The notes under the pieces: model-generated
Seen by the model: only the letters and a program-made list of their open reading frames with translations
Database searches by the model: none
What the model was told of the DNA's origin: nothing
From: Candidatus Latescibacterota bacterium
GTDB lineage: Bacteria > Latescibacterota > UBA2968
Direction of reading: 5' to 3'
NCBI GenBank assembly: GCA_965242535.1
Contig: OZ251458.1
Location: 926,399-990,398 of the forward strand
Length of the DNA: 64,000 bases
Shown: positions 18,306 to 63,992 of the stretch, in pieces
How the letters are laid out: the number at the start of each line of letters is the position of its first letter
How positions within the stretch are numbered: position 1 is the stretch's first letter
Made by a program: the position numbers and the translations under genes

Positions 18306-19643
18306 TTAGCCTTCCTCTGTACCTGCTAGCTGAACCATGAGGTCGCGCCGGTCGTGGATGATAGATGGAGAATGGGTAGCTACGAGGAAATCGAGGTCAG
18401 CCAACTTGGATATCTTAGCAATATCCTCGAGAAACTTTCTCTGCCATGTGACGTGAAGAGACAACTCTGGTTCATCTATGAGAATGAGGGAACCCGGCGA
18501 TGCCTTGAACAAAAGTCCGTATGTCAGGACAATTTCATGTTGCTCACCGGAGGACAGTGCTTTTGGAGGCACAATGGATCCATCGTGATCTGACTTAAAC
18601 ACGAAGCCCCTATCTTTATCTATCTCGAATTTCTTATATGAGAAACGCGAGTTGATAATCTCTTTGAACAGTTCTACTCGGCGGAGAAGTGGGTCGAATA
18701 CATCCAGTTTCTTTTGAACGTCATCGAGGTAGGCCCATAAAATTTTTCTTTCATTTTCTTCTAAACCTTCAGGGGTTAGAGGAACGGGAGCCTCAGCAAC
18801 AAGGAGACCTGCTTCCATCAAGCGATCTCTATATTTTGATTGACGGTTATATTCTTCCTGTATGCTCTCTTCTGTCGCTGTCTGAGGAAGCGCGTATGCC
18901 AAAAGCCGTTGGGGAAAAGAGCTATCTAAAGATGATCCAAGCTCACCGGATTCCCTTTGGCATTCCTTTATTCTCGATACCATATCCTCCGAGTATTGCT
19001 CTACCGTCACTCGTTGGACGGGAACTTCTCTCCTATATCGAGGCACAAATTCGCCATTTTTGTGCCTTGTAAAGAGTCTCTGAGTTTCAACAACGACAAT
19101 ATTGATTTGGTTTAATATGCTGTCCATTGCATCCGAAACTGAGGGGATGGATTCTCGAATATCAGAGGGTAGAAAGTGTCCGTAACGAAAAACGACCTCA
19201 TCAAAAGCCATGATCTCGTCCGTGATTTCATCATACCACTCAGATGGACCAATGCGTTCAATATGATCGATCATGCGTTCTAAGAGGCCGGCGGAATATC
19301 TTTTTAGCCTCTCCGGCACTCTCGAGGATACCGTATGCTCAATCGTTTTGTTTCCGAAACGATAGGTTAATTTTAGCTTTGCGGAATCCTTTGCCCCTTC
19401 TTTTTGGATTTGTCTAACTGTCAAGCTGCCTTTCGGATCGAAACGGACCACAATGCGGTCAAAGGGCGTATCGAACAATGAGTGAAACCGCCGTTTGAAG
19501 AGGTCATAGACGAGACGGAGAACCGTCGTCTTGCCGACGCCATTCCGGCCGTGGATGATAGTAATACGGTCGTTTTCCTTCAAGGGTATCTCGTGATCAA
19601 AATACCCGAACAGAGAGTGAATATCGATCTGTCTTATTTTCAT
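18306..19643 (-). CDS. ABC/SMC-type ATPase component (AriA-like; AAA_15/AAA_21-like)
   Basis: Walker A GRNGVGKTT, ABC signature LSSGEQ, Walker B LILIDEPE and H-loop ATHSP. ATG at 19643 with a GGAG ribosome-binding site. The 164-codon upstream extension in the ORF track is read-through antisense to the TPR gene. Confidence 0.75.
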   Translation of the reverse strand: MKIRQIDIHSLFGYFDHEIPLKENDRITIIHGRNGVGKTTVLRLVYDLFKRRFHSLFDTPFDRIVVRFDPKGSLTVRQIQKEGAKDSAKLKLTYRFGNKTIEHTVSSRVPERLKRYSAGLLERMIDHIERIGPSEWYDEITDEIMAFDEVVFRYGHFLPSDIRESIPSVSDAMDSILNQINIVVVETQRLFTRHKNGEFVPRYRREVPVQRVTVEQYSEDMVSRIKECQRESGELGSSLDSSFPQRLLAYALPQTATEESIQEEYNRQSKYRDRLMEAGLLVAEAPVPLTPEGLEENERKILWAYLDDVQKKLDVFDPLLRRVELFKEIINSRFSYKKFEIDKDRGFVFKSDHDGSIVPPKALSSGEQHEIVLTYGLLFKASPGSLILIDEPELSLHVTWQRKFLEDIAKISKLADLDFLVATHSPSIIHDRRDLMVQLAGTEEG

Positions 19644-19671
19644 GTCCGTCTCCAATTGTCTATTTGCACTT

Positions 19672-19712
19672 TTAGAAAACCCCGCACTCATTGGCACGGG
19701 GTTTTGGGATGT
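19672..19712. terminator. Hairpin and T-run identical to 17388-17428 (right copy of the direct repeat)
   Basis: Same 41-bp sequence. Lies 26 nt downstream of the TPR gene stop. Confidence 0.7.
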
Positions 19713-19737
19713 TGGGGTTTGTGGAGCGAGGTGATCG

Positions 19738-20925
19738 CTATTCCTGATTTTGGCTTTGCAGAGCCTCGTACATCTGGTAGGCTTCGGTGGCTTTTTTGAC
19801 GCATTCTGCGGCGACATCGCCTTCCGAGACTTCGGATTTGCGCGCATAAACGCGAGACAGCGCGGCCCAAGCGCGGGCATTGGCGGGTTCGAGTTCGGTG
19901 ACTTGGGCAAAGGCTTCGATGGCTTTGTCAAAGGATTCCACTTTGTCCGCGAGCAAGCCGAGCTGGTACCACGAATCGACATCGTCGGGATTTGCTTCCA
20001 CGCTCTTTTGGAAGAGGTCGAGGGCTTGATCGCCCTTGCCGAGTTGCCGATAGGCAATGGCGAGGTTGAACATCGCGTCCATGTTATCGGGTTGGAGCTC
20101 GACCACTTTATCGAGGATTTCAGCGGCTTTTTCAAAGTTTTCGGCTTGCAAAAAGATCTGCGCCGCGATGTTCAAAATTTTGGGATCATCGCCCGCTATC
20201 GCCAAGGCTTTTTCCGCGGATTCCGACGCGCCTTCTCTGTCGCCTAATTGGTATTGGGCTATCGCCATGTTCTGCAAAATAAGGATATCTTCGGGATCGA
20301 TCTCGTGGCCTTTTTGGAACATTTCCAGGGCTTCGTCAACCCGGCCCGCATTCATCAGCGCGCCGCCGACATTGAAAAAGGACTGGGCTTTCTTCGGATT
20401 GAGTTCAAGGGCTTTTTTGTACGTCTCGATGCCCTCGTCTGCATTGCCCGAGTTGAGGTGCGTGATCGCCAAGCCTTCATACGCGTCGGCTTCTTTGGGG
20501 TTGATCGTGATGGCGAGGTTGAATTGCTCGATGGCAAACTCGGATTTTTGGGAGTTCATCCCCTTGACGCCCAGGTTGTAATACCGCGTCCAAAGCTCTT
20601 TGCGGTCCGTCTCGACTTTCTTTTTCCATTTCTTGTCCGTGGCCAGCTCGTAGTGTTCGTTCATTTCCTCGAACAATTCCTTTTTCGAGTAGAGCCAGCC
20701 CAAGTAGTACTGGACTTCCGAATCGTCGGGGCGACCTTCTGCCGCGATGATGTATTGTTCCAACGCCTTGTCGTATTGACGCTGATTGATGTACAATTTG
20801 CCCGACCGCTTGGCAACAGAGGCCTGCCCTTTGGTCACTTTGGCTTCCGCAGTCGCGGTGAGCGATGGGGGCGCAACAAAAGCTAGCGTCAGGGCAACGA
20901 TGAGTCCACACTTGCGAAATGTCAT
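19738..20925 (-). CDS. Secreted TPR-repeat protein
   Basis: Signal peptide MTFRKCGLIVALTLAFVAPPSLTATAEA, then repeated TPR-like A/Y/L/G heptad patterns throughout. Confidence 0.75.
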   Translation of the reverse strand: MTFRKCGLIVALTLAFVAPPSLTATAEAKVTKGQASVAKRSGKLYINQRQYDKALEQYIIAAEGRPDDSEVQYYLGWLYSKKELFEEMNEHYELATDKKWKKKVETDRKELWTRYYNLGVKGMNSQKSEFAIEQFNLAITINPKEADAYEGLAITHLNSGNADEGIETYKKALELNPKKAQSFFNVGGALMNAGRVDEALEMFQKGHEIDPEDILILQNMAIAQYQLGDREGASESAEKALAIAGDDPKILNIAAQIFLQAENFEKAAEILDKVVELQPDNMDAMFNLAIAYRQLGKGDQALDLFQKSVEANPDDVDSWYQLGLLADKVESFDKAIEAFAQVTELEPANARAWAALSRVYARKSEVSEGDVAAECVKKATEAYQMYEALQSQNQE

Positions 20926-23906: not shown

Positions 23907-24343
23907 CCCATTTGTACCAACTCATTCATTATCGGGGTCGCTTTGCTGTTCCATCGTCCTTCAGAAAAGCCATCCCAACTCGTGCCATCCCAAAAGTTCA
24001 TCGACGAAAGCCATCGGGCACAGCGCGCAAGTCCGTCTCGCAACCCACATCCATTTTGCAACCCACTTTGCAGGCTGTCTCATGTCGTGGAATTACAAAA
24101 GCGATTTGCGCTGTGCCTAGCCCCTCGGCGCATGAGAGCGGCATTTTTGAACTGCTCGGGCAGTTGTACCCCGCTCGCCTACTTTTTTTTGCTGTTGAAA
24201 AAAAGTAGGTCGCCGAAGGCATCGAAGGCAACCAACGATGCTTTTAGGACCAAACGTTTTAGAAAAGTGAGCCACGTCGGTGCGGATTGGTGCGGATCAA
24301 CATTTAGTTTAATTTACGGAGTATTTAGTTGGTACAAATGGTT
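23907..24343 (+). repeat. MITE-like repeat copy B (terminal inverted repeats CCATTTGTACCAACT... / ...AGTTGGTACAAATGG)
   Basis: Inverted termini read directly. The internal modules match copy A. Confidence 0.8.
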
Positions 24344-25617: not shown

Positions 25618-25719
25618 ATCGCGTTGTTCGGCAATGGCTTCAAGCCTTGTCAACCTTTCGTTGGTGGTGGCTTGGGACGGATCGATGATGGGAATGGGTA
25701 TGCGTTTTTAGGGATTTCA

Positions 25720-26892
25720 TCAATAATGGACGACCTGAAAATACAAGTCGTCTTTGACCGGGTTAAATTCAACAAATTTCAATCGGTCACACCGTCCACC
25801 ATTGTTCTGGTTAAATCTGTTAAAGCTGTCAATCAATTGCTGATAAGCCACAGATTGCTTATTGGCAATTTTTTTTGTTACCAGCACTGGCTGAATATCA
25901 CTTGGGCGATTCGAAATATAATATTGCTCAATCCAATCCACATATCTTTGAATTTGTATGACGTTATTTATGTCCGCTTCAACTGCTTTCAGTTCAAGGG
26001 CAATTACTATTCTTTGCTCATTTCGTATAGCTGACGCCATAATATCAATCCTCTGCATGCCAACACCGCATGATACCTCATTGCCAAGCCATTCAATTTG
26101 CGCGCCATTAAGGATTGCCGCATCCAAACTCGCGTTTATTGTTTGGCCTATATTCTTTGTTATATACGCCTGCAAATGTGATTCAAACATTTGTCCGACT
26201 TGATACTTTGCAATCAGCCGCGGCAATAGATTTAGTTCCTCTTGCCGTATTCCAGCGTAGGGGCTCTTTTGGTCAAGACAAACTATTTTTCCTTTTTCCA
26301 AATCGAATGAAACCCCCGTATTTTGGCAGTTCAATTCTGTTTTTTTGTTTTTGTTCCTAATAAGTTGCGTCAATCTTTCAGCCTCATAAATCGTTATCAT
26401 TGTGTTACCGCGATTGCCCTTAAGTTTTCGGTATATCAAGCTCCATAGCATTTGATTTGGAGAGTTTATGTTTTTAATCTCGTCCAAAGCTTCCCATTCT
26501 GTTACGCCTTCCGCATAAACTCTATATGGCTCAATGAGCGTTCTAAAAGTTAGCGGCTTTTGAAGTTCGCTTTTGAGATATTGCCGATCATCATTGTTAT
26601 CCAAGAACGACCAGTTGTGTTTGGCTTTGAAAATTCCAAAAAACTTACCTTCAAAAATTTTATTTGCAAAGTTCTGTTGCAAATAAAAAATGATTTGGTC
26701 TCCCCGTCTAACCCTACTCCCATCGGCGATCATGTTGACAAGCATATTTTCTGTTGCTGGGTGAAGATAAGTGCTTGTGCTTGGACTGTTAAAGTCAACT
26801 TTGTTGTCTTTTGCCCCAGTGCCGGCAAAGAGATATTCCAAGTGGATTTTGAATGTCGTGGAATCGACAATGAAAACATGTGTTGTCATCAT
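25720..26892 (-). CDS. Restriction endonuclease-like protein: N-terminal PUA/EVE-like beta-barrel plus C-terminal PD-(D/E)xK nuclease
   Basis: N-terminus carries the R-R-GD-x-I-x-FY pattern (RVRRGDQIIFY) of EVE/ASCH/PUA folds. C-terminus carries RIDIMAS...IVIALELKA (D...E-x-K). Strongly AT-rich codon usage. AGGAGG ribosome-binding site. Confidence 0.6.
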   Translation of the reverse strand: MMTTHVFIVDSTTFKIHLEYLFAGTGAKDNKVDFNSPSTSTYLHPATENMLVNMIADGSRVRRGDQIIFYLQQNFANKIFEGKFFGIFKAKHNWSFLDNNDDRQYLKSELQKPLTFRTLIEPYRVYAEGVTEWEALDEIKNINSPNQMLWSLIYRKLKGNRGNTMITIYEAERLTQLIRNKNKKTELNCQNTGVSFDLEKGKIVCLDQKSPYAGIRQEELNLLPRLIAKYQVGQMFESHLQAYITKNIGQTINASLDAAILNGAQIEWLGNEVSCGVGMQRIDIMASAIRNEQRIVIALELKAVEADINNVIQIQRYVDWIEQYYISNRPSDIQPVLVTKKIANKQSVAYQQLIDSFNRFNQNNGGRCDRLKFVEFNPVKDDLYFQVVHY

Positions 26893-26925
26893 GGTACCTC
26901 CTATCGTCGGAAAACAGCGGATACC

Positions 26926-27933
26926 TCACGTTGGGGGTTTGCAGACCGAGCAGGGAAAATGGTCTTTCTCGGCATCTTTCAATGAGATGGGAATATAGGT
27001 CTTTTTTAGATATCGACAACCAGCGCGATGATACTTGGTTCCCGCTGTTGTGGTATAGACCTCAATTTCGTCACGGGAACGGACTTTTACCGTATTGCCT
27101 ACTTTTTTAAAAACGAAAATGTACTCGTGCTTGAAAATGTAGAACCCGCCTACGAGTGCGCGATAGCGCCACAGATTTTCCCGATTCTGCTTTGCGCGGT
27201 TGTTCACCATATTTTTTACGAGAATGCTTTTCAGCATGAGGCCATGCCCGCGCTTTAGGATTTCTTGCATGAGATAAAACCCGAGCGGCACCCACTCGCT
27301 ATTGGTGTACTTATCGCCAATCACAACCGCCAAGTATCTGTCCCGCGCCAATAAATCGGTAAAATTTTCAATCACATCGCCGAACTTCGCGACAAATTCG
27401 TCAACGGTTGGGGCATTGCACAGATCCGCTTTTTGGTCGCTGAACTTGATAATATCGTGATACGGGGGATGCAACAAGATCAAATGGACATATTGTTTGC
27501 CCATTTTGTCCAGCACTTCCAAAACTTTGGTGCGTGCAGCTCTTGTCGCGCTGTCTGCGACGATGACTTCTGTCAGAACATTGTCGCCACTGACTTCAGT
27601 GCCTGCATGATCAAAAGACAGTTCCTCTTGGCTGATATTTTGTCGTGCGTATTCCGCCACCTCGGGTATCAACTCAACGCCGATACCGTGCCGGCCCAAC
27701 CGCTTCGATTCGATGAGGGTCGTGCCGTGCCCCAAAAACGCATCCAAAACAACATCGCCTTTTTGCGTGAACCGATTCATCATCTGATTCGGGATTTGCG
27801 GAATGAAGTTGCCGTGGTACGCGTTGTTGTGTGCCCCGGATTTGTCGCGCTCGCCAATCAACCACAGGCTATCGGTGATAATATCGCCGTATTTCTTCCA
27901 ATTTTTTAATTCTAAATCGTTGATTTTCGGCAT
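26926..27933 (-). CDS. DNA methyltransferase (amino-MTase: N6-adenine or N4-cytosine)
   Basis: Motif I VLDAFLGHGTT with a preceding FIPQIPNQ block and LGRHGIGVE. Motif IV LLHPPY. Cys-rich C-terminal tail. Same AT-rich island as the nuclease. Confidence 0.75.
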   Translation of the reverse strand: MPKINDLELKNWKKYGDIITDSLWLIGERDKSGAHNNAYHGNFIPQIPNQMMNRFTQKGDVVLDAFLGHGTTLIESKRLGRHGIGVELIPEVAEYARQNISQEELSFDHAGTEVSGDNVLTEVIVADSATRAARTKVLEVLDKMGKQYVHLILLHPPYHDIIKFSDQKADLCNAPTVDEFVAKFGDVIENFTDLLARDRYLAVVIGDKYTNSEWVPLGFYLMQEILKRGHGLMLKSILVKNMVNNRAKQNRENLWRYRALVGGFYIFKHEYIFVFKKVGNTVKVRSRDEIEVYTTTAGTKYHRAGCRYLKKTYIPISLKDAEKDHFPCSVCKPPT

Positions 27934-27960
27934 GGTTAATCCCCGTCATTTGTATCTTCG

Positions 27961-28045
27961 GACGGGCACGGGGGCCTGTCCCTACGATTGCGATTGCTTC
28001 TCACCTCTCACCTCTCCCGTCTCCCGTCTCCCGTCTCCCGTCTTG
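27961..28045. repeat. REP-like hairpin (reverse orientation) plus (GGGAGAC)n tail and CTTGTATCTT
   Basis: Reverse complement of the canonical hairpin-GAAGATACAAG-(GGGAGAC)n composite. Confidence 0.85.
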
Positions 28046-28965
28046 TATCTTTCCTCTCTGAAATACCCCCGTTGCCGCATCAGCAGGCGGTAGAGGTCGG
28101 GGTGTTTTTTGAATGGTTCGCGGCCGTGCAGCCAGAAGTGGTTGTTGAGCACCAAGAGGTGATCCGGCGGCAGTGAGAGCGGGACTACGCCTGCGGATGC
28201 TTCCATCGAATCGGACAGATCGCGCAGGTATCGGGCCTGTGCGATGGTTTTGGGATACGCGAATTGATCGATAAAACACACGCAGGCTTTGCCATCCCGC
28301 TCGTAAAACGCGGTCTTTTCAACGGATGTGGGATAATTCTTGCTCGGCGGCGATTGGTAGGTCATGGGCAACGAAGCCAGCGGATGCCGGGCAAATCGCG
28401 CCAACGCCTCCCAATCGTCCAAATGCAACAAGCGCGATTCGCCCCCCACCGCATCGCGCTCGGCCATTTTCATCATCAAAATCCAGTCCGTCGTCTCGCG
28501 GATGTACGTGCCATCGGTGTGGAGCGTGAACAGGCGGTACGCTTGGCGCAAATACGAGTCGCTGTCGTCCGCGTCCCGCACCTCAAAGCAGGCGTAATAA
28601 TTTCCGGTCATATCGTCAAAATTGGGCATCCCGATCAGGTGTGAAACCGCCGTGCCAAACGCCACGCGCTGATCCTGGGTCTCAAACCCGCCTTCGACCG
28701 CGATGGTGAATCCACCCGTTGCGCGGTCTCGCACGAGCGCGTTGATCTGCGCGGCAAAATCCCCCCCGACGCTTCGTTGCAGGATATCCACGGCGATCAA
28801 TCGCAAATAGGGCACATAGGTCAAGCGTTGCTCAGACAAATCGCCGGTCTCGCGCACAAATCGCGCCGCGGCATCGCCGCCGATGGCGATGCGATGCAAC
28901 CGATGGTGCTCGGGATGTCGTTCAATCGCGTAGTTCAATGTCTGATCCTTTCCGTAGCCGGGCAC
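27982..28965 (-). CDS. TauD/TfdA-family Fe(II)/2-oxoglutarate dioxygenase
   Basis: LHTDGTY (HxD) and NHFWLHGR second His/Arg. The C-terminal 20 codons are read-through of the REP repeat, so the true stop context is uncertain. Confidence 0.6.
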   Translation of the reverse strand: MPGYGKDQTLNYAIERHPEHHRLHRIAIGGDAAARFVRETGDLSEQRLTYVPYLRLIAVDILQRSVGGDFAAQINALVRDRATGGFTIAVEGGFETQDQRVAFGTAVSHLIGMPNFDDMTGNYYACFEVRDADDSDSYLRQAYRLFTLHTDGTYIRETTDWILMMKMAERDAVGGESRLLHLDDWEALARFARHPLASLPMTYQSPPSKNYPTSVEKTAFYERDGKACVCFIDQFAYPKTIAQARYLRDLSDSMEASAGVVPLSLPPDHLLVLNNHFWLHGREPFKKHPDLYRLLMRQRGYFREERYKTGDGRRETGEVRGEKQSQS

Positions 28966-31629: not shown

Positions 31630-31655
31630 GGACAGGCACGGGGGCCTGTCCCTAC
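31630..31655. repeat. REP-like hairpin GGACAGGCACGGGGGCCTGTCCCTAC
   Basis: Family member, reverse orientation. Confidence 0.85.
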
Positions 31656-49489: not shown

Positions 49490-49516
49490 TGTAGGGACAG
49501 GCCCCCGTGCCTGTCC
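49490..49516. repeat. REP-like hairpin GTAGGGACAGGCCCCCGTGCCTGTCC with a flanking CCATTGT duplication
   Basis: Canonical family sequence, about 60 nt upstream of small coiled-coil gene 2. Confidence 0.85.
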
Positions 49517-49573
49517 TCATACCCAGTCGTCAGTGGTCTAATCTCCACAACCCCTTATCCAAAAGGAGACCCC

Positions 49574-49825
49574 ATGCCCATTCCCATCATTGACCCGTCC
49601 CAAGCCACGACCAACGAGAGGTTGGCAAGGTTTGATGCGATTGTTGAACAACTGGCACAAACGCTTGTGCGCGTTGAAGATCGCCTTACGAATCTTGAAG
49701 ACCGCATCGCAAGGGTTGAAGACCACATGAATAAATCGTTCCGTTGGCTCGTCGGCATCCTCTTCACGATCCTGATTGCCATTTTGGGCGCGACAGTGAC
49801 CATTTTGTTGAACATGCCCAAGTGA
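49574..49825 (+). CDS. Small coiled-coil protein with C-terminal TM anchor (paralogue 2)
   Basis: RLTNLEDRIARVEDHMNKSFRWLVGILFTILIAILG. AAAGGAGAC ribosome-binding site. Confidence 0.6.
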   Translation: MPIPIIDPSQATTNERLARFDAIVEQLAQTLVRVEDRLTNLEDRIARVEDHMNKSFRWLVGILFTILIAILGATVTILLNMPK

Positions 49826-49901: not shown

Positions 49902-51095
49902 ATGTCGTCTATTCTCGAACAGTTGGGCGTGCGGCCCATCATCAATGCCGCGGGGCCGGTCACGCGCTTGAGCGGCGCGCGCATGGACGCAGATGTGATC
50001 GACGCCATGCGCGAGGCCGCGCGGGTTTGCGTGGATATCGCGCAGATGCAGGCCGCGGCGGGGCAATTGATCGCCGACATCACAGGGGCCGAGTGCGGGT
50101 ATGTGACATCGGGCGCGGCGGCCGGGCTGATGCTCGCAACGGCGGCATGCGTTACGGAGATGGACCCCGGCAAGATGAATCGATTGCCCGATACCTCGGG
50201 GATGAAAAATGAGGTGATCATGCCCCGGTCGCATCGCAACTTTTACGATCACGCGGTGCGCTCCGTGGGCATCACACTCGTGGAAGTGGGCATTCCCGAC
50301 CGGTTTAGCGGCGCGGGCGTGCGCGATACAGAGGCGTGGGAAATCGCCGATGCAATAACCGATCAGACCGCGGCGATAGTCTATGTCGCGCAATCCTTCG
50401 CGCAACCGCCTTTGTCGCAAGTGACCGCGGTGGCGCGCGATTCTGCGATACCGGTCATCGTCGACGCGGCGGGTCAGTTGCCCCCCGCGGCGAATTTGCA
50501 GGCGTTTATCCGCGAGGGCGCCGATGCGGTGTGTTTCAGCGGCGGGAAAGCCGTTGGCGGGCCCCAGGGCACGGGTATTTTGTGCGGTCGCTACGAGCTG
50601 ATTACCGCAGTGGCATTGCAGCATTTAGACATGGATGTGCATTTTGACCTGTGGACGCCCCCGCCCTCGCTGATCCACAAAGCCATCCTGCCGGGCGCGC
50701 CGCAACACGGGATTGGGCGACCGTGCAAAGTGGGGAAAGAGCAGATCGCGGGCCTCATGGTCGCGCTGAAAAAATTCGTTGCCGAAAGCGACGAGACGCG
50801 ACACGCCCGCTGGTCGCAATGCTTGGAGCACTTGGCGGACGCCATTAGCGATTTGCCGAACTGCGATATCCGCATCGACCACCAGCGCGCCATCCCGGTT
50901 CTCCATATCGCACTCGCGCAAGCGGACAAAGGACTGGATTTGGCGCGGCAACTGATGGAAGGCGATCCGAGCATCCACGTCGGCACATCGGGCATTTACG
51001 ACGGCATCCTGACCTTCAATCCCGCGTGTCTGTCTGACGACCAGATCCAACCGATGGCGGAGCGATTGAGGGAAGCGGTAAGAGGTAGCGGTTAA
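49902..51095 (+). CDS. SelA-like PLP-dependent enzyme (L-seryl-tRNA(Sec) selenium transferase fold; DgaE-like)
   Basis: FSGGKAVGGPQGTGIL PLP-lysine block homologous to SelA FSGDKLLGGPQ. Confidence 0.6.
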   Translation: MSSILEQLGVRPIINAAGPVTRLSGARMDADVIDAMREAARVCVDIAQMQAAAGQLIADITGAECGYVTSGAAAGLMLATAACVTEMDPGKMNRLPDTSGMKNEVIMPRSHRNFYDHAVRSVGITLVEVGIPDRFSGAGVRDTEAWEIADAITDQTAAIVYVAQSFAQPPLSQVTAVARDSAIPVIVDAAGQLPPAANLQAFIREGADAVCFSGGKAVGGPQGTGILCGRYELITAVALQHLDMDVHFDLWTPPPSLIHKAILPGAPQHGIGRPCKVGKEQIAGLMVALKKFVAESDETRHARWSQCLEHLADAISDLPNCDIRIDHQRAIPVLHIALAQADKGLDLARQLMEGDPSIHVGTSGIYDGILTFNPACLSDDQIQPMAERLREAVRGSG

Positions 51096-51102
51096 TACTT
51101 AG

Positions 51103-51450
51103 TAAATTAAATGATACCAAATTTTGATCCGTACCAATCCGCACCTGCATGGCTCGCTTTTCTAAAACGTTTGGTCCTAAAAGCATCGTGGGTTGCCTTC
51201 GATGCCTTCGGCGACCTACTTTTTTTCAACAGCAAAAAAAAGTAGGCAAAAAATGCCGCTCTCAAACGCCGAGGGGCTTGCACAGCGCAAAGCGCTTTTG
51301 TAATAGAACGACATGCGCCAGCCTGCCAAGGGGGTTGCAAAAGAGAGGTGGGTTGCGAGACGGACTTACGCGCTGTGCCTGATGGATTTCGGTGATGGGC
51401 TTTTGGGATGGCACGGTTGGCGATGGCTTATTTAATTTATGTAGTAGTTA
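51103..51450 (-). repeat. MITE-like repeat copy C (reverse orientation)
   Basis: Contains the GTTGCCTTCGATGCCTTCGGCGACCTACTTTTTTT...AAAAAAAAGTAGG hairpin module and the AAATTAAAT terminus. Confidence 0.8.
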
Positions 51451-51617: not shown

Positions 51618-52298
51618 ATGGGCGTTATCACCATTTCGCGGGAATACGGCAGTGACGGGCGCACGGTTGCAAAGCGCGTTGCCGAGGCCCTGTCTTACCA
51701 CAATATCGACAAGGAATTGCTCGTGGAGGTCGCGCAAAAAGCCCAAGTGCCCATCTCGGAAGTCGAACGCTATGACGAACAACCCGAACATCCCGCGCTG
51801 CGAATTTTGCGTAAATTCCTCACCCCCGGATACGCCGACACGTTGACGGGCTTGGCGGAATACGAATGGTGGGCAACGGCGACTGTGCCCGAATTGTCGG
51901 AACACGAGGATCAAGCCCTGACGACGATGGACGAAGAGGTCTATGCGAAATTGACCGCAGAGGTGGCCGAGCAGTTGGCGGATCAAGGCGACGTGGTTTT
52001 GCTCGGCAGAGGGGGGCAGGCCGTATTGCGCGGCCGGATAGATACGCTGCATGTGCGCGTGGTGGGCACGCGAGATTTTAAGCTCGAGGTGGTAAAAGCG
52101 CGCGATCAATTGACCCGAGACGAGGACGCGATTCGGCGCATGCGCGAGGTGGACGACCGCCGCAAAACGTATATCAAACGCCACTACAAGGTGGAATGGG
52201 ACGATCCAAACCTGTACCATCTCATGGTCAATACCGGCTTGCTCGGCGTTGATGGCGCCGTAGATGCTATCGTCTGCGCGGCGCGCAAAGTGCTTTGA
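51618..52298 (+). CDS. Cytidylate kinase-like family protein
   Basis: MGVITISREYGSDGRTVAKRVAEAL N-terminus characteristic of the Cytidylate_kin2 family. Confidence 0.65.
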   Translation: MGVITISREYGSDGRTVAKRVAEALSYHNIDKELLVEVAQKAQVPISEVERYDEQPEHPALRILRKFLTPGYADTLTGLAEYEWWATATVPELSEHEDQALTTMDEEVYAKLTAEVAEQLADQGDVVLLGRGGQAVLRGRIDTLHVRVVGTRDFKLEVVKARDQLTRDEDAIRRMREVDDRRKTYIKRHYKVEWDDPNLYHLMVNTGLLGVDGAVDAIVCAARKVL

Positions 52299-52299
52299 G

Positions 52300-52640
52300 G
52301 GAGGCGGGGAGACGGGAGAGGGGAGACGGGAGAGGCGAAAGGCGAAAGGCGAAAGGCGAAAGGCAAAAGGCGAAAGGCGAGAGGCGAGAGGCGAGAGGCG
52401 AGAGAAGCAATCGCAATCGTAGGGACAGGCCCCCGTGCCTGTCCGAAGATACAAGATGGGAGACGGGAGTTTAGCCACAAAAGGCACAAAAGGCACAAAA
52501 GGCACAAAAGGCACAAGCGAGGTACAACTGGCACCGCCAGTTCAAAGGCACGAGCGGGGTACAACTGACGACAGCCGTTCATCGTAGGGACAGGCCCCCG
52601 TGCCTGTCCGAAGATACAAAGGGAGACGGGAGACGGGTAG
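52300..52640. repeat. Repeat-filled convergent intergenic region: (GGGAGAC)n, (GGCGARA)x11, REP hairpin, (GGCACAAAA)x4, second REP hairpin plus GAAGATACAAAGGGAGACGGGAGACGGG
   Basis: Read directly. The hairpins are at 52419-52445 and 52584-52609. Confidence 0.9.
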
Positions 52641-52670
52641 TGGTCGGGTAAAAACAAACGACTCTTGCCC

Positions 52671-54083
52671 TCACAATCCCATTTCGATATACGCCTGCGC
52701 GATTTTTTCGATGGCGATCACAAAAGCAGCCGTGCGTAAATCCGGCACATTGTCGCGCGAGTTGCGAATTTCGCGCAGGGTTTGATAGGCGATGCTCATC
52801 GTATCTTCGAGTCCCGAACGCACCAAATCCAATTCGTCCGCGCCGTAAGAGAGTTTTGACCTGAGATGGTCGGGAACGGGTTTGCCGACCATTTCCTCTA
52901 TGGCTTCGATGATTTGCACGCCGCGATGCGTCTCGAACCGCCTGTCGAGCCGCCCAAAACGGATGTGGGAGAGGTTCTTGATCCATTCAAAATACGAAAC
53001 CGTGACGCCGCCCGCATTGAGGTACGTGTCGGGGATGACGATCTTGCCGGCGCGTCGCAACACGTCATCCGCTTCAAATGTGATCGGACCATTGGCGGCT
53101 TCGGCAATGACCGGGGCTTTGATACGCCGTGCATTTTCGAGCGTGATCTGCCCCTCGACCGCGGCGGGAATCAGCACATCGCATTCCGCTTCGAGCGTGC
53201 GTTTGCCCTCCGAGACATAAGTCGCGCCCGGAAAGTCTTTTGCGGACCCGCGTTCTGCGCGGTACGCGGCGACATCTTCAATGCAGAATCCCCTCTCGCA
53301 CAAGACGGCACCATCGCGTTCGATAATGCCGACGATGCGCGCCCCGCTTTCTTCCTCCAAAAATTTCGCCGCGTGAAAGCCCACATTGCCCAAGCCCTGC
53401 ACGATGACGCGCTTGCCCTCCAAATCGCCTTCCAATCCCGCGTCTTTGACGTCTTGCGGGTGATTGAAAAATTCTTTGATCCCGTAAAAAACCCCCCGCC
53501 CGGTCGCTTCGAGGCGCCCTTGAATCCCGCCTTGGGAAAAGGGTTTGCCCGTCGTGCAAGCGATGGCATCGATATCTTCGGGGTGCATGCTGCGATAGGT
53601 GTCGGCGATCCATGCCATTTCTCGGTCGCTGGTGCCCATGTCTGGCGCGGGAACATTGAGGGCCGGGTTGATGTATCCCTTTTTGATCAATTCCTGTGCA
53701 AATCGCCGGGTGATGCGCTCGAGGTCTTCCTCGTCGTATTCGCGCGGGTCGATGCACAAGCCGCCTTTAGATCCGCCAAAGGGCACATCGACAATGGCGC
53801 ATTTGTACGTCATGAGTGCCGCGAGGGCTTCCACGTCTTCTTGATTGACCGTAGGGGCAAAGCGGATGCCGCCCTTTACCGGCAGGCGATGCTCGCTGTG
53901 AACCGAGCGCCAACCCGTGAAAATCTGGTAGCTACCGTGGCATTTGACAAAAAAACGCACCATGTAAATGTTGTTGTTGGTCTTGATCTGGTCCGCCAAG
54001 CCGGGGGGCAAATCGAGCGTTGCCGCGGCCCGGTCAAACATGAGGTCGACGCTTTGCTTAAAGGTGTGTTCGTGTGCGGCCAT
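52671..54083 (-). CDS. gdhA: Glutamate dehydrogenase (Glu/Leu/Phe/Val dehydrogenase family)
   Basis: KGGIRF and PFGGSKGG motifs, GLGNVG Rossmann. GGAGGAAT ribosome-binding site. Confidence 0.9.
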   Translation of the reverse strand: MAAHEHTFKQSVDLMFDRAAATLDLPPGLADQIKTNNNIYMVRFFVKCHGSYQIFTGWRSVHSEHRLPVKGGIRFAPTVNQEDVEALAALMTYKCAIVDVPFGGSKGGLCIDPREYDEEDLERITRRFAQELIKKGYINPALNVPAPDMGTSDREMAWIADTYRSMHPEDIDAIACTTGKPFSQGGIQGRLEATGRGVFYGIKEFFNHPQDVKDAGLEGDLEGKRVIVQGLGNVGFHAAKFLEEESGARIVGIIERDGAVLCERGFCIEDVAAYRAERGSAKDFPGATYVSEGKRTLEAECDVLIPAAVEGQITLENARRIKAPVIAEAANGPITFEADDVLRRAGKIVIPDTYLNAGGVTVSYFEWIKNLSHIRFGRLDRRFETHRGVQIIEAIEEMVGKPVPDHLRSKLSYGADELDLVRSGLEDTMSIAYQTLREIRNSRDNVPDLRTAAFVIAIEKIAQAYIEMGL

Positions 54084-58166: not shown

Positions 58167-58490
58167 TGCCATCTGTACCAACATCGGGATCGGTTTGCTG
58201 TTCCCTCGTCCTTCAGAGAATCCATCGCCAACCGTGCCCTCGCAAAAGTCCATCAATGAAAGCCATCGCGCACAGCGCGCAAGTCCGTCTCGCAACGCAC
58301 TTCTCTTTTGCAACCCACCTTGCAGGCCGACTCATGTCGTGCGATTACAAAAGCGCTTTGCGCTGTGCCTAGCCCCTCGGCGCATGAGAGCGGCATTTTT
58401 TGCTTACTTTTTGTTGCTGTTGACAAAAAGTAAGTCGCCGAAGGCATCGAAGGCAACCCACGATGCTGTAGGACCAAACTTTTTGGATCA
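58167..58490 (+). repeat. MITE-like repeat copy D (3'-truncated at the tamA stop)
   Basis: Begins with CCATCTGTACCAAC and contains the hairpin module CTTACTTTTTGTTGCTGTTGACAAAAAGTAAG. Confidence 0.75.
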
Positions 58491-60789: not shown

Positions 60790-60910
60790 GTAGCCAACGC
60801 ATCGAAGGCAACCCACGATGCTTTAGGGCCAAATGCTTTAGACAAGCGAGCAACTCAGGTACTGATTTGTACGTATCAAAATTGAGAATAACTTAATTTA
60901 CAGAGTAATC
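60790..60910 (+). repeat. MITE-like repeat copy E (3' fragment including the terminal inverted repeat TTAATTTACAGAGTA)
   Basis: Matches 15040-15127 of copy A. Confidence 0.75.
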
Positions 60911-61198
60911 AATATCGCAATAAAAAATGTCCGATGCAACGCGGGGTTGTGGCGAAATGCCATGGCCCCGTTTTTTTGTGAAAATATTTCTGTCATTTTG
61001 AAACCTTTAAGGGCAAGGCGTGTATCTAAGACCTAATAGAGAACAAAAAAGCAGGAGAGCAAAGGATGGACGATGCCCAACCCTGAAACTTTGTAAAAGC
61101 ACGATGCGTTTAAGGAATGTCCGAACTCCGAATTTGCAACGGGTTCAATCGGGACGAGGCATAATCCCCTGTCAGCACCCGCTTTGGGAGGGAATCTC

Positions 61199-62182
61199 AT
61201 GACCGCAAAATTGGACATGCCGACGACAATTCGCGCCGAGCCGAGTGGAGGTTTTCGCCGTGCTGTTGGACATGACCGCGAGCGCGACAAAAAAACCATG
61301 TCCTCGCATGATGCTGTCGGAGAACGGAAAGAACGGGTGGAAGATATGAAAACAGAAGCGCGGACCGGGCGCGATACTTCGATTCAGAGCTACCTGAAGG
61401 AGCTCCGCAAGTATCCGCCATTGAGTCGAGAAGAAGAACAAAAGACGCTGTGCCAGGCCAAGAAGGGCGATCGCGCGGCGACAGACAAAATCATCACGTC
61501 AAACTTGCGTTTTGTCGTCAGCGTCGCACTCGAGTACCAGGGACGAGGCGTACCCCTCGCCGATTTGATCGCCGAGGGCAATATCGGACTGATGGAAGCC
61601 CTCAAGCGATTCGATGAAAAGCGCGGGTTTAAGTTCATCAGCTATGCGGTTTGGTGGATTCGGCAGGGCATTCTCAACGCGCTCAAGCGCACATCGACCG
61701 TGGCGATGCCCGCAAATCGCCAGGAAGATATGGACCGCATGGCGCGACGCTGGGGGCAGATGAGCCAAGAGTTGGGCCGCGTGCCCACGCTGGACGAAGT
61801 CGCCAGCGATATGCAGATCAGCCCCGAGCGCGCAGAGCGAGCCTTGCGTTGCGTGCGTCCCGATCTGTCGCTCTCGATGCCCATAGATGCGGAAGGCGAG
61901 CAGTCGCTCATGGATTTGATCGAGGCCGATGTCGAGTGCCCCGATCAGTTGGTTATGGCACGCGATCAGTCCGAGTGGGTGTCCCGATCTCTCGCCGCGC
62001 TCGACCCGCGCGAAGCCGATGTCATTCGCGTCTATTTTGGCCTCGATGGCCATGAGCGCGAGAACCTCAGCGAAATCGGTCGCTCTTTGGGCCTGACCCG
62101 AGAACGCATTCGCCAGATCCGCAACCGCGCGCTGTGCAAACTCCAGCGATATTTTCGGCGCGAAATGCCGGAGGAGAGGTGA
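61199..62182 (+). CDS. Sigma-70 family RNA polymerase sigma factor (group 2/3-like)
   Basis: Region 2 (NLRFVVSVALEYQGRGVPLADLIAEGNIGLMEALKRFD...YAVWWIRQ) and region 4 HTH (LSEIGRSLGLTRERIRQIRNRAL). GGGAGGGAA ribosome-binding site. Confidence 0.8.
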   Translation: MTAKLDMPTTIRAEPSGGFRRAVGHDRERDKKTMSSHDAVGERKERVEDMKTEARTGRDTSIQSYLKELRKYPPLSREEEQKTLCQAKKGDRAATDKIITSNLRFVVSVALEYQGRGVPLADLIAEGNIGLMEALKRFDEKRGFKFISYAVWWIRQGILNALKRTSTVAMPANRQEDMDRMARRWGQMSQELGRVPTLDEVASDMQISPERAERALRCVRPDLSLSMPIDAEGEQSLMDLIEADVECPDQLVMARDQSEWVSRSLAALDPREADVIRVYFGLDGHERENLSEIGRSLGLTRERIRQIRNRALCKLQRYFRREMPEER

Positions 62183-62189
62183 GACGGGA

Positions 62190-62474
62190 GACGGGAGACG
62201 GGAGAGGGAAGAAGCCATCGCAATCGTAGGGACAGGCCCCCGTGCCTGTCCGAAGATACAAAGACGGGAGATGCCATCGCAATCGTAGGGACAGGCCCCT
62301 GTGCCTGTCCGAAGATACAAGAGGCGAGAGGTGGGAGACGGGAGAGGGAAGAGATGTGTAGATCGGATTGCGACGCGAAGCACAACGTCAGTAAAGGGAA
62401 AAACGATGGCGGATTGATCCGTGACCCGTTCCATTATTTGTAGGGACAGGCCCCCGTGCCTGTCCTTGCCCCAA
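62190..62474. repeat. Cluster of three REP-like hairpins (62226-62251, 62285-62310, 62449-62474) with GAAGATACAAG tails and (GGGAGAC)n
   Basis: Canonical family sequence repeated downstream of the sigma factor gene. Confidence 0.9.
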
Positions 62475-63739: not shown

Positions 63740-63992
63740 CGAATGAGCATTTAAAAAAAGTAGGCGAGCGAAGTACAACTGCTCCAGCAGTTCAATCGCT
63801 TTTGTAGCAGGACGACATGAGACAGCCTACAAAGGGGGTTGCAAGATGAATATTGGTTGCGAAACGGACTTGCGCGCTGTGCGTGACAGCTTTCCTTGAG
63901 GGGGTTTTGAGATGGCACGTTTGGCGATGGCTTTTCTGAAGGACGGTGGAACAGCAAAGCGACCCGATAATGAATTAGTTGGTACAGATGGA
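63740..63992 (-). repeat. MITE-like repeat copy F (reverse orientation, 5' part; terminus ...GGTACAGATGG)
   Basis: Reverse complement of the 23907-24100 modules of copy B. Confidence 0.75.

Follow-up and report, generated by a model that had tools for sequence, protein, structure and literature searches.

The 64,000-nucleotide stretch of Candidatus Latescibacterota contig OZ251458.1 analyzed here (positions 926,399 to 990,398; hereafter the window) contains a dispersed family of 26-base hairpins, GTAGGGACAGGCCCC(C/T)GTGCCTGTCC. With a probability of about 0.8, we identify these as GTAG-tagged repetitive extragenic palindromic (REP) sequences, of the type going with REP-associated tyrosine transposases (RAYT/TnpAREP; HuH-Y1 enzymes) of subclass 2.4. 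The hairpin is most likely a non-autonomous DNA element copied by a RAYT, with any RNA-level effects and a landing site for an insertion sequence (IS) as by-products. REP hairpins are an already known kind of element; what stands out is the presence of an identical hairpin in many phyla.

The hairpin family has the anatomy of GTAG-class REPs

Nine full copies of the 26-mer were found in six separate spacers of the window, at 12973-12998(+), 27960-27985(-), 31630-31655(-), 49491-49516(+), 52419-52444(+), 52584-52609(+), 62226-62251(+), 62285-62310(+) and 62440-62465(+). Dinucleotide-preserving shuffling gave an expectation of 0.03 copies, and none of 100 shuffles reached nine. Six of the nine copies are identical, those at 12973 and 62285 have a CCCTGT loop, and that at 27960 has a single stem mismatch. 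Three decayed copies were also present, i.e., at 10045-10069(+) (GTAGGGACAGGTCCCGTGCCCGTTC), at 13060-13087(+), where the tag reads ATAG and the 3' arm carries a 3-nt insertion, and at 17339-17356(-), where the 3' half alone of a subtype A copy is left (CACGGGGCCTGTCCCTAC then GATTGCC). A 5'-truncated sister variant, GGCGATGCCCTGTGCTCGGTC with the linker AAAGATACAAG, occupies 11385-11418(+) (hairpin part, 11385-11405) and has a stem of the GCGATG type, as in loci L035 and L104. The original prediction, made from the sequence of the window, had listed approximately 13 hairpin sites; these comprise the nine full copies, one of which was real but placed at 62449 rather than at its true start of 62440, and the three decayed relics, while the site at 28961 was unconvincing.

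Each copy is built from a GTAG tag directly at the foot of an 8-bp stem that closes a 6-nt loop, CCCYGT. In the copy at 52419 (GTAGGGACAGGCCCCCGTGCCTGTCC), the perfect stem is GGACAGGC/GCCTGTCC and the loop CCCCGT. The tag lies immediately 5' of the stem in all nine full copies, and is invariant across the 26 variants considered below. As single-stranded DNA, the isolated 26-mer folds into the perfect 8-bp stem that had been predicted, and does so equally well on either strand. GTAG-class REPs have been defined by GT[AG]G at 0-2 nt 5' of the hairpin foot (Di Nocera 2013, PMC3733652; Quentin 2018, PMC6006769); given that GTAG here adjoins the foot of a perfect 8-bp stem, the family falls within this definition. 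REPs are further recognized by a short loop on a basal stem paired throughout over at least 7 bp, here 6 nt and 8 bp, and by an extragenic location, here seen in eight of the nine copies, with the ninth overlapping a stop codon. Two more traits of the class are a high copy number scattered through the genome, for which the window shows nine copies in six spacers of 64 kb, and a cognate RAYT gene in the same genome that carries the REP or is flanked by it, as seen in other carriers. The proposal of a dispersed, REP-like family of extragenic hairpins, akin to bacterial interspersed mosaic elements (BIMEs), is supported; the diagnostic GTAG tag had gone unmentioned.

Two subtypes can be told apart by their flanks. 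Subtype A, five of the nine full copies (27960, 52419, 52584, 62226 and 62285), has the 5' linker AGC(A/C)ATCGCAATC (52405-52418(+), with others at 62212-62225, 62271-62284 and 27986-27999(-)) and the 3' flank GAAGATACAA(G/A) plus heptamers. Subtype B, comprising the copies at 12973, 31630, 49491 and 62440, has CCATC-type 5' flanks and lacks the GAAGATACAAG/heptamer tail. The claim that the hairpin is usually followed by GAAGATACAAG and GGGAGAC heptamers therefore describes subtype A and fails for subtype B.

Two other candidate identities were tried and rejected. A CRISPR array does not fit copies scattered over six spacers without repeat-spacer regularity; the sole regular spacing is that of a 59-bp tandem whose "spacer" is itself repeated. 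A larger folded RNA spanning the 52299-52670 spacer was rejected at z = -1.2.

Stems covary while tag and loop stay fixed

Variants were collected from the fetched loci by the tag and a CCYYGT loop only, pairing not being required, and 26 distinct variants were obtained. Of these, 21 pair at seven or eight of the eight stem positions, and nine perfectly complementary stems were found (ACAGGC, GCGGCC, ACAACC, GCGGAC, GCCGCC, GACGGC, GCGCAC, ACGGCC and GCAACC). Across the 26 variants, 88% of cells were paired, as against 69% in shuffles and 31-48% when the partners were slid. Compensatory changes occurred in six of the eight stem pairs, with 47 double-change cells compared with 15.7 expected, and none of 500 shuffles equalled the observed covariation. 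This covariation around a fixed tag and loop demonstrates that selection acts on the hairpin as a hairpin. A constant tag and loop on changing stems is also the pattern expected if a protein reads the tag and the loop.

RAYT genes of other carriers contain the hairpin

In six loci from at least five carrier genomes, all other than that of the window, an inverted REP pair of the GTAG family lies in frame inside a subclass 2.4 RAYT gene (L071, L189, L190, L191/L193, L194 and L195). Locus L071, on a Pirellulales contig and one of 103 loci with the REP, was found by a weak match of a hidden Markov model built on 80 Y1 proteins; it contains the gene for a Y1 protein of 216 aa in which the motifs PNHLHGIII, WQRSF and YIRNNP occur. 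With this protein as seed, homologues were found on contigs of known carriers, including an Arenicellales chromosome. Every RAYT homologue opened had an inverted REP pair at the same place in the open reading frame (ORF), encoding peptides of the form VGTGPRACP...GQPQGVVPT, with more copies beside the gene or operon, and three of the genes have an exact or near-exact ACAGGC stem. The left edge of another locus, L061, includes the N-terminal part of a gene of this kind, and exact 26-mers are found 110-270 nt upstream of where it starts.

These RAYT proteins are 179-222 aa long and carry NHAH, NHVH or NHLH, then LWQRSF, then YI(K/Q/R/T)NNP. Their best NCBIfam match was REP_Tyr_transpos ("REP-associated tyrosine transposase"), at 50-65 bits, below the 80-bit cut-off. 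Subclass 2.4, equivalent to group 4 of Bertels, is uniquely characterized by NH[IFV]H, WQ and YIxNNP motifs, a median length of 194 aa, REPs in frame between HuH and Y, "double-foot" sister REPs and a patchy occurrence among phyla (Quentin et al. 2018, PMC6006769). Judged by sequence, the proteins of the carrier genomes match these traits, with NH[IFV]H-like, WQ and YIxNNP motifs, a length of about 190 aa and a patchy phylum distribution. The hairpins agree in part, in that the GT[AG]G foot lies directly on a G-C-rich stem bottom and double-foot sister forms (GTAGGG...CCCTAC; e.g., GTAGGGACAGGTCGCGACCTGTCC(CTAC)) co-occur in loci of the same carrier genomes, with none in the window. The class of the cognate RAYT that the original prediction had proposed to search for can thus be named from genes in other carriers.

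The system differs from subclass 2.4 as published (PMC6006769) in several respects. The published members are mainly from Cyanobacteria and Bacteroidetes, whereas the present carriers are uncultured, e.g., Latescibacteria, Nitrospinota, Nitrospirales, Chloroflexi and Omnitrophota; a single 26-mer is letter-identical across these carriers; and the lineage of the window, its RAYT unseen, has single or head-to-tail copies only. Furthermore, at the bottom of its stem the window variant has G-C, G-C, A-T, while sister variants (GGGCGG...) have three G-C pairs, as in subclass 2.4.

Searches by other routes were negative. Probes for E. coli RAYT, IS200 and IS608 had no match in the window or the 103 REP loci. 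A metagenome scan with a COG1943-type Y1 consensus yielded 80 loci of a different subfamily, none of them flanked by a 26-mer REP. The ORFs bracketed by inverted REPs were housekeeping genes and translated repeats only, and clustering of all REP-adjacent ORFs revealed no family of proteins that was enriched across genomes. When the subclass 2.4-type proteins were searched as a profile, no solved structure matched at E <= 0.01; the 26-mer is a ready substrate for the biochemistry of a subclass in which none of these enzymes matched a solved structure by sequence search.

In carrier genomes, the subclass 2.4 RAYT gene is flanked by an HSDR_N_2/N6_Mtase/Eco57I methyltransferase gene on one side and a Methylase_S specificity gene on the other (L189:2413-6009, L191:1899-6031, L193:257-3776 and L190:3023-4627). 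The stop codon of the methyltransferase overlaps the RAYT start, and the RAYT looks integral to a type I-like restriction-modification operon.

Genomic context and weighing of an RNA-level role

Eight of the nine full copies in the window are intergenic, five of the nine lying within two convergent spacers, one of which is the 52299-52670 spacer between a cytidylate-kinase-like gene (51618-52298, +) and a glutamate dehydrogenase (GDH) gene (52671-54083, -). A strictly intergenic location, as originally claimed, does not apply to the copy at 27960. There, a CsiD-family ORF (27982-28965(-)), the last ~23 codons of which are read from linker and heptamer array, has the TAG of the GTAG tag as its stop codon. 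The copy at 31630 lies outside coding sequence, ~35 nt upstream of where a secreted pectate-lyase-family protein (MKKFLILL signal peptide) is likely to start, in sense orientation. In other genomes, 25 of 120 copies were inside long ORFs, compared with 73% expected (p = 6e-32), i.e., copies avoid them. Short ORFs here that encode peptides such as VGTGPRACP or GQARGPVPT should be regarded in annotation as translated repeats. Overall, the REP family explains most of the odd non-coding sequence of the window, namely its inflated convergent spacers, a rewritten gene tail and an IS landing site.

Several observations weigh against a RAYT-mobilized REP. The 6-nt loop is just over the 2-5 nt of one published short-hairpin search rule. 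No RAYT/Y1 gene was found in the window, nor in the 21-kb loci from three relatives, and no RAYT homologue was assignable to the clade of the window among the matches listed (two lists, best 120 proteins each); a cognate enzyme in the genome of the window is consequently assumed. Inverted REP pairs, i.e., two inverted REPs with a short spacer as in REP doublets forming hairpins (REPINs), were seen for none of 21 copies in the window and the Latescibacteria loci. In this lineage, therefore, the moving unit may differ, or current growth may proceed by tandem duplication only. In other phyla, an inverted partner lies no more than 80 nt away from 55 of 107 copies, as in the REPINs of Pseudomonas fluorescens (Bertels and Rainey 2011, PMC3116915), from which the window and Latescibacteria copies differ. 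Finally, copies in tandem gene contexts of the window and Latescibacteria loci favor the sense orientation of the tag strand by 8:2, or 9:2 when 27960 is counted, which could point to selection on RNA instead of DNA.

On this last view, the hairpins would be kept mainly as RNA elements, blocking exonucleases or pausing transcription in 3' untranslated regions (UTRs) and modulating expression from 5' UTRs, with transposase spread secondary or historical. We regard this as unlikely, despite the orientation bias and the fact that all subtype A copies, as well as the half copy at 17339, are found in sense orientation downstream of a gene. The isolated hairpin is stable, and a preprint reports E. 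coli REPs to act as context-dependent regulators in 3' UTRs (bioRxiv 10.64898/2026.03.23.713779). However, an intrinsic (Rho-independent) terminator was rejected, since the hairpin is followed by GAAGATAC or TCA and no T run; no terminator-like or promoter-like sites were found in the spacer region 52200-52750. A search of Rfam yielded a tRNA alone at gathering thresholds, with chance-level matches at E <= 1 and none for the hairpin. Both strands fold equally well, and in convergent spacers the hairpin is antisense to one gene of the two. The same sequence occurs in genomes of 33-65% guanine plus cytosine (GC) and inside RAYT coding sequence, which is better explained by protein recognition of DNA than by local RNA roles. 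The sense-orientation bias itself could reflect RNA-level selection, or may simply track the replication strand.

An identical hairpin in about eight phyla

A scan for the exact 26-mer, with one genome per prokaryotic species, identified at least 103 loci, distributed over at least 34 species-level genomes whose names point to about eight phyla. As named by submitters, the carriers are Latescibacteria, Nitrospinota, Nitrospirales/Nitrospira, Chloroflexi/Anaerolineae/Caldilinea and Omnitrophota, together with Muiribacteriota, Pirellulales, Arenicellales and Poriferihabitaceae. The family had been predicted to be genome-specific, which this distribution refutes. The GC content of the loci ranges from 33 to 65%, and the flanks are unrelated between lineages. 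One Latescibacteria chromosome, OY282377.1, has at least 10 motif loci spread across 0.66-4.12 Mb. Many carriers appear to be sponge-associated, as read from isolate names. No match to the 26-mer was found in the viral contigs or plasmids searched, and a literature search returned neither a paper with the 26-mer sequence nor any work on REPs in sponge symbionts.

An assembly or binning artefact was rejected, as the copies are internal to chromosome-level assemblies and have unrelated flanks; with several carrier records at chromosome level, binning error does not explain the cross-phylum pattern. REPIN/RAYT systems have been described as mostly vertically inherited and lineage-specific (PMC5581495). 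They are usually regarded as belonging to single lineages, mostly of Proteobacteria. In contrast, the 26-mer core is common to several phyla, and an identical hairpin goes with one RAYT subclass in many uncultured phyla. We tentatively suggest, on somewhat less than even odds, that a single REP/RAYT system with a letter-identical hairpin moved horizontally among at least eight phyla over this GC range, was rebuilt in Latescibacteria as head-to-tail heptamer mosaics, and has its RAYT integral to a type I-like restriction-modification operon in several other carriers. If true, horizontal spread would contradict the prevailing picture of vertically inherited, lineage-specific systems. The family therefore offers a test case for two alternatives, i.e., horizontal spread and an enzyme-hairpin fit that has stayed frozen for very long times. 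Three features deserve closer attention, namely the identical core in many phyla, the head-to-tail heptamer mosaic and the RAYT genes within restriction-modification operons.

REPs are gained and lost between relatives

Other repeats of the window, and an IS, recur in Latescibacteria records, and the best protein matches of the window include Latescibacteria. Searches for exact matches to its GDH and IS110 transposase sequences returned nothing from the collection examined, from which the source genome is thus absent. Relatives of the window's GDH at 93, 88 and 86% identity were found on megabase contigs with shared local gene order. The orthologous cmk/GDH spacer, which measures 372 bp in the window, is 83 bp long in the 93% relative and holds a different REP variant, GTAGGGGCGATGCCTCCGTGCTCGCCC; it is 116 bp long in the 88% relative, with decayed heptamers and no REP, and 5 bp long in the 86% relative. 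Similarly, an ~85-bp block carrying the REP at 49491 is missing in the 93%-identity relative L104, although the conserved promoter-like block and the small ORF that flank it align. Orthologous spacers that lack the REP or have another variant show that it is gained and lost between relatives.

REPs are embedded in a fixed-order mosaic

The repeats around the hairpin are likewise far above expectation in the window, with 11 matches to GAAGATACAAG at up to one mismatch (0.4 expected) and 14 to GGGAGACGGGAGA (0.08 expected). The GAAGATACAAG linker lies 3' of the REP at 52445-52455(+), and occurs also at 52610-52620, 62252-62262, 62311-62321, 27949-27959(-), 28042-28052(-) and 11408-11418. Latescibacteria relatives have the same linker 3' of REPs with different stems.

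The 372-bp spacer at 52299-52670 consists entirely of repeats. Right after the stop codon of the cytidylate-kinase-like gene begins a heptamer microsatellite block of GGGAGAC, GGCGAAA and GGCGAGA units (52299-52404(+)), followed by AAGCAATCGCAATC, the hairpin at 52419, GAAGATACAAG and two GGGAGAC-like units. From 52476, TTTAGCC and a 9-mer array of 4.6 units of CACAAAAGG (52476-52516(+)) are followed by a second small hairpin family, GGTACAACTG...CAGTTCAA (52518-52581(+); GGTACAACTG...CAGTTC), present in two copies of which the second is decayed. Then come the REP at 52584, head-to-tail with that at 52419 at a spacing of 165 bp, GAAGATACAAA and 2.4 units of GGGAGAC. The 9-mer module was also found at 11358-11386 and in the relatives L045 and L060. 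Related heptamer arrays, which reach 12.7 units in the window, are at 52456-52470, 52621-52637, 62173-62209, 62333-62349, 27999-28043(-) and 11328-11355.

The mosaic has the fixed order REP, (G/A/C)AAGATACAAG, GRGAGAY heptamers, TTTAGCCAC(AAAAGGCAC)n and the GGGGTACAACTG...CAGTTCAA GTAC hairpin, and relatives with different REP stems keep the same order. Parts of it are tandemly duplicated, as in the 59-bp perfect-register unit at 62203-62320, where the copies at 62226 and 62285 belong to units 1 and 2, respectively. Copies are single or head-to-tail, with uniform orientation within clusters. Conserved linkers like those of E. coli-type BIMEs are present, in a fixed order, but the REPs do not alternate in orientation as they do in BIMEs. 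The family resembles the E. coli REP/BIME and TnpAREP system (RAYT group 2; structure 4ER8) in its GTAG-tagged extragenic hairpin, its mosaic clusters with conserved linkers, its preference for 3' ends and convergent spacers and, by analogy, its putative single-strand cut-and-ligate mechanism. It differs in that the stems of E. coli REPs are longer and bulged, the orientation of REPs alternates in BIMEs, and the linkers are unrelated.

Such tandem structure raises the alternative that one ancestral spacer gave rise to the copies through local duplication, slippage and recombination, with no dedicated transposase involved. The 59-bp tandem, the long heptamer arrays and the head-to-tail copies within spacers speak for it. 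Yet the copies occupy six unrelated spacers over 50 kb, in both orientations and with two flank types; other phyla have the identical core with unrelated flanks; and orthologous spacers of relatives contain different variants. As the sole explanation of the copies, local duplication is contradicted by these findings, and we give it next to no credence.

Copying by a RAYT would proceed as follows, on the model of work on E. coli TnpAREP and on IS608 of the IS200/IS605 family. On single-stranded DNA, the top strand would fold into the 8-bp hairpin. The transposase, presumed to be encoded elsewhere in the genome of the window, would recognize the GTAG(GG) foot and the CCCYGT loop, cut nearby and re-ligate the element at new sites. 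Copies would persist only where harm is small, i.e., in spacers, above all at 3' ends and in convergent spacers. Once embedded in the mosaic (REP, GAAGATACAAG, GRGAGAY heptamers, TTAGCCAC(AAAAGGCAC)n, GTAC hairpin, REP again), they would be multiplied as tandem duplication and microsatellite slippage enlarge it. The side effects observed in the window are one gene tail rewritten and stopped by the TAG of a REP, hairpins placed in 3' and 5' UTRs, mostly in sense, and a linker that serves as the landing site of an IS110-family element.

Intergenic tandem arrays of 7-bp units, with several unit types per genome, are known from heterocystous cyanobacteria as heptanucleotide short tandemly repeated repetitive (STRR) sequences. 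As these are generally described, their unit sequences differ from those of the window, where the arrays are physically tied to REP mosaics.

Heptamer arrays beside the same REP were also observed in other genomes (L037:1025-1212, L078:6148-6168, L001, L045 and L080). Some have window-like units, namely ACCATTG (x6.3, on a Chloroflexi-labelled contig) and CGAAAAG (x3.1, on another contig), and there are CTGACCG and ACTGACA arrays in Latescibacteria.

An IS110-family element lies in a REP linker

An IS110-family insertion sequence occupies 11431-12717(-), with its transposase ORF at 11448-12455(-) and AGATAC on both sides. It is 82% identical to an element in the closest relative, L104, with the same junctions in both. 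The element ends in ...AAGATACAAG, and the rebuilt target is ...AGATACAAG... in both the window and L104. These two insertions suggest AGATACAAG as a candidate target specificity. Insertion took place at the AGATAC core of a GAAGATACAAG-like linker, adjoining the truncated sister REP. Predicted to target the hairpin family, the IS thus does sit in the GAAGATACAAG-like linker of a REP cluster, but not in the hairpin. IS110-family elements that insert into REPs are known in Pseudomonas putida (PMC8450116). As with ISPpu9, the window has an IS110-family element within a REP cluster, and two related copies share a junction motif; unlike ISPpu9, the element lies at the AGATAC core of the linker beside the REP and not in the palindrome.

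These junctions might suggest that activity of the IS110 family left the GAAGATACAAG modules behind in the genome, as IS ends or as attachment sites, with the hairpin as part of the target. The AGATAC-bounded ends, the shared junctions of the L104 relative and the P. putida precedent fit this idea, which we nevertheless hold to be very improbable. The window has seven GAAGATACAAG linkers but only one IS copy, the linker is missing from four of the nine REPs, no hairpin lies within 60 nt of the L104 insertion, and the hairpin family is present in many genomes that lack the GAAGATACAAG linker.

Other repeats and inserted modules in the window

A second dispersed repeat of ~330 bp has copies of 74-88% identity at 14596-14904, 23931-24325, 51094-51439(-), 58169-58487 and 63764-63991(-), and partial copies at 15053-15126 and 60796-60911. 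It had no Rfam match. Every copy is intergenic and contains the hairpin GCCTACTTTTTTTTGCTGTTGAAAAAAAGTAGG, the repeat is present in the Latescibacteria loci L056 and L067, and it explains why the spacer upstream of the cytidylate-kinase-like gene is enlarged. A third family, of small palindromes, GGGGTACAACTG(N5-8)CAGTTCAA, has five copies in the window compared with 0.07 expected, at 14761(-), 24161(-), 52522(+), 52559(+) and 63773(+), and occurs in L045 and L060 also. It sits both in the 330-bp repeat, at varying positions, and in the REP mosaic, with loops and inner stems that vary by copy.

Approximately 100 bp 3' of tRNA-Leu(CAG) (9783-9869), a 21-bp unit, ATGAAGGCGAGTAATCCGAGC, is repeated 3.5 times at 9967-10039, just before the decayed REP at 10045; a lone copy lies at 12864-12894, 80 bp before the REP at 12973. 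An 80-bp segment at 25623-25702 is 86% identical, in inverted orientation, to 49573-49652, the latter being the start of the small ORF downstream of the REP at 49491, and it also matches L104:13916-13995.

Two low-GC gene pairs lie beside REPs. The first (~48% GC; 17444-20135), next to the half REP, encodes DUF4435 and AAA_15/AAA_21 ATPase proteins, is bracketed by a perfect 41-bp direct repeat (17388-17428 and 19672-19712) and looks like an inserted defence-type cassette. The second (~45% GC; 25720-27933), directly downstream of the REP at 27960, encodes a NucS_C-like nuclease domain and an N6_N4 DNA methylase, and is possibly an acquired restriction-modification module.

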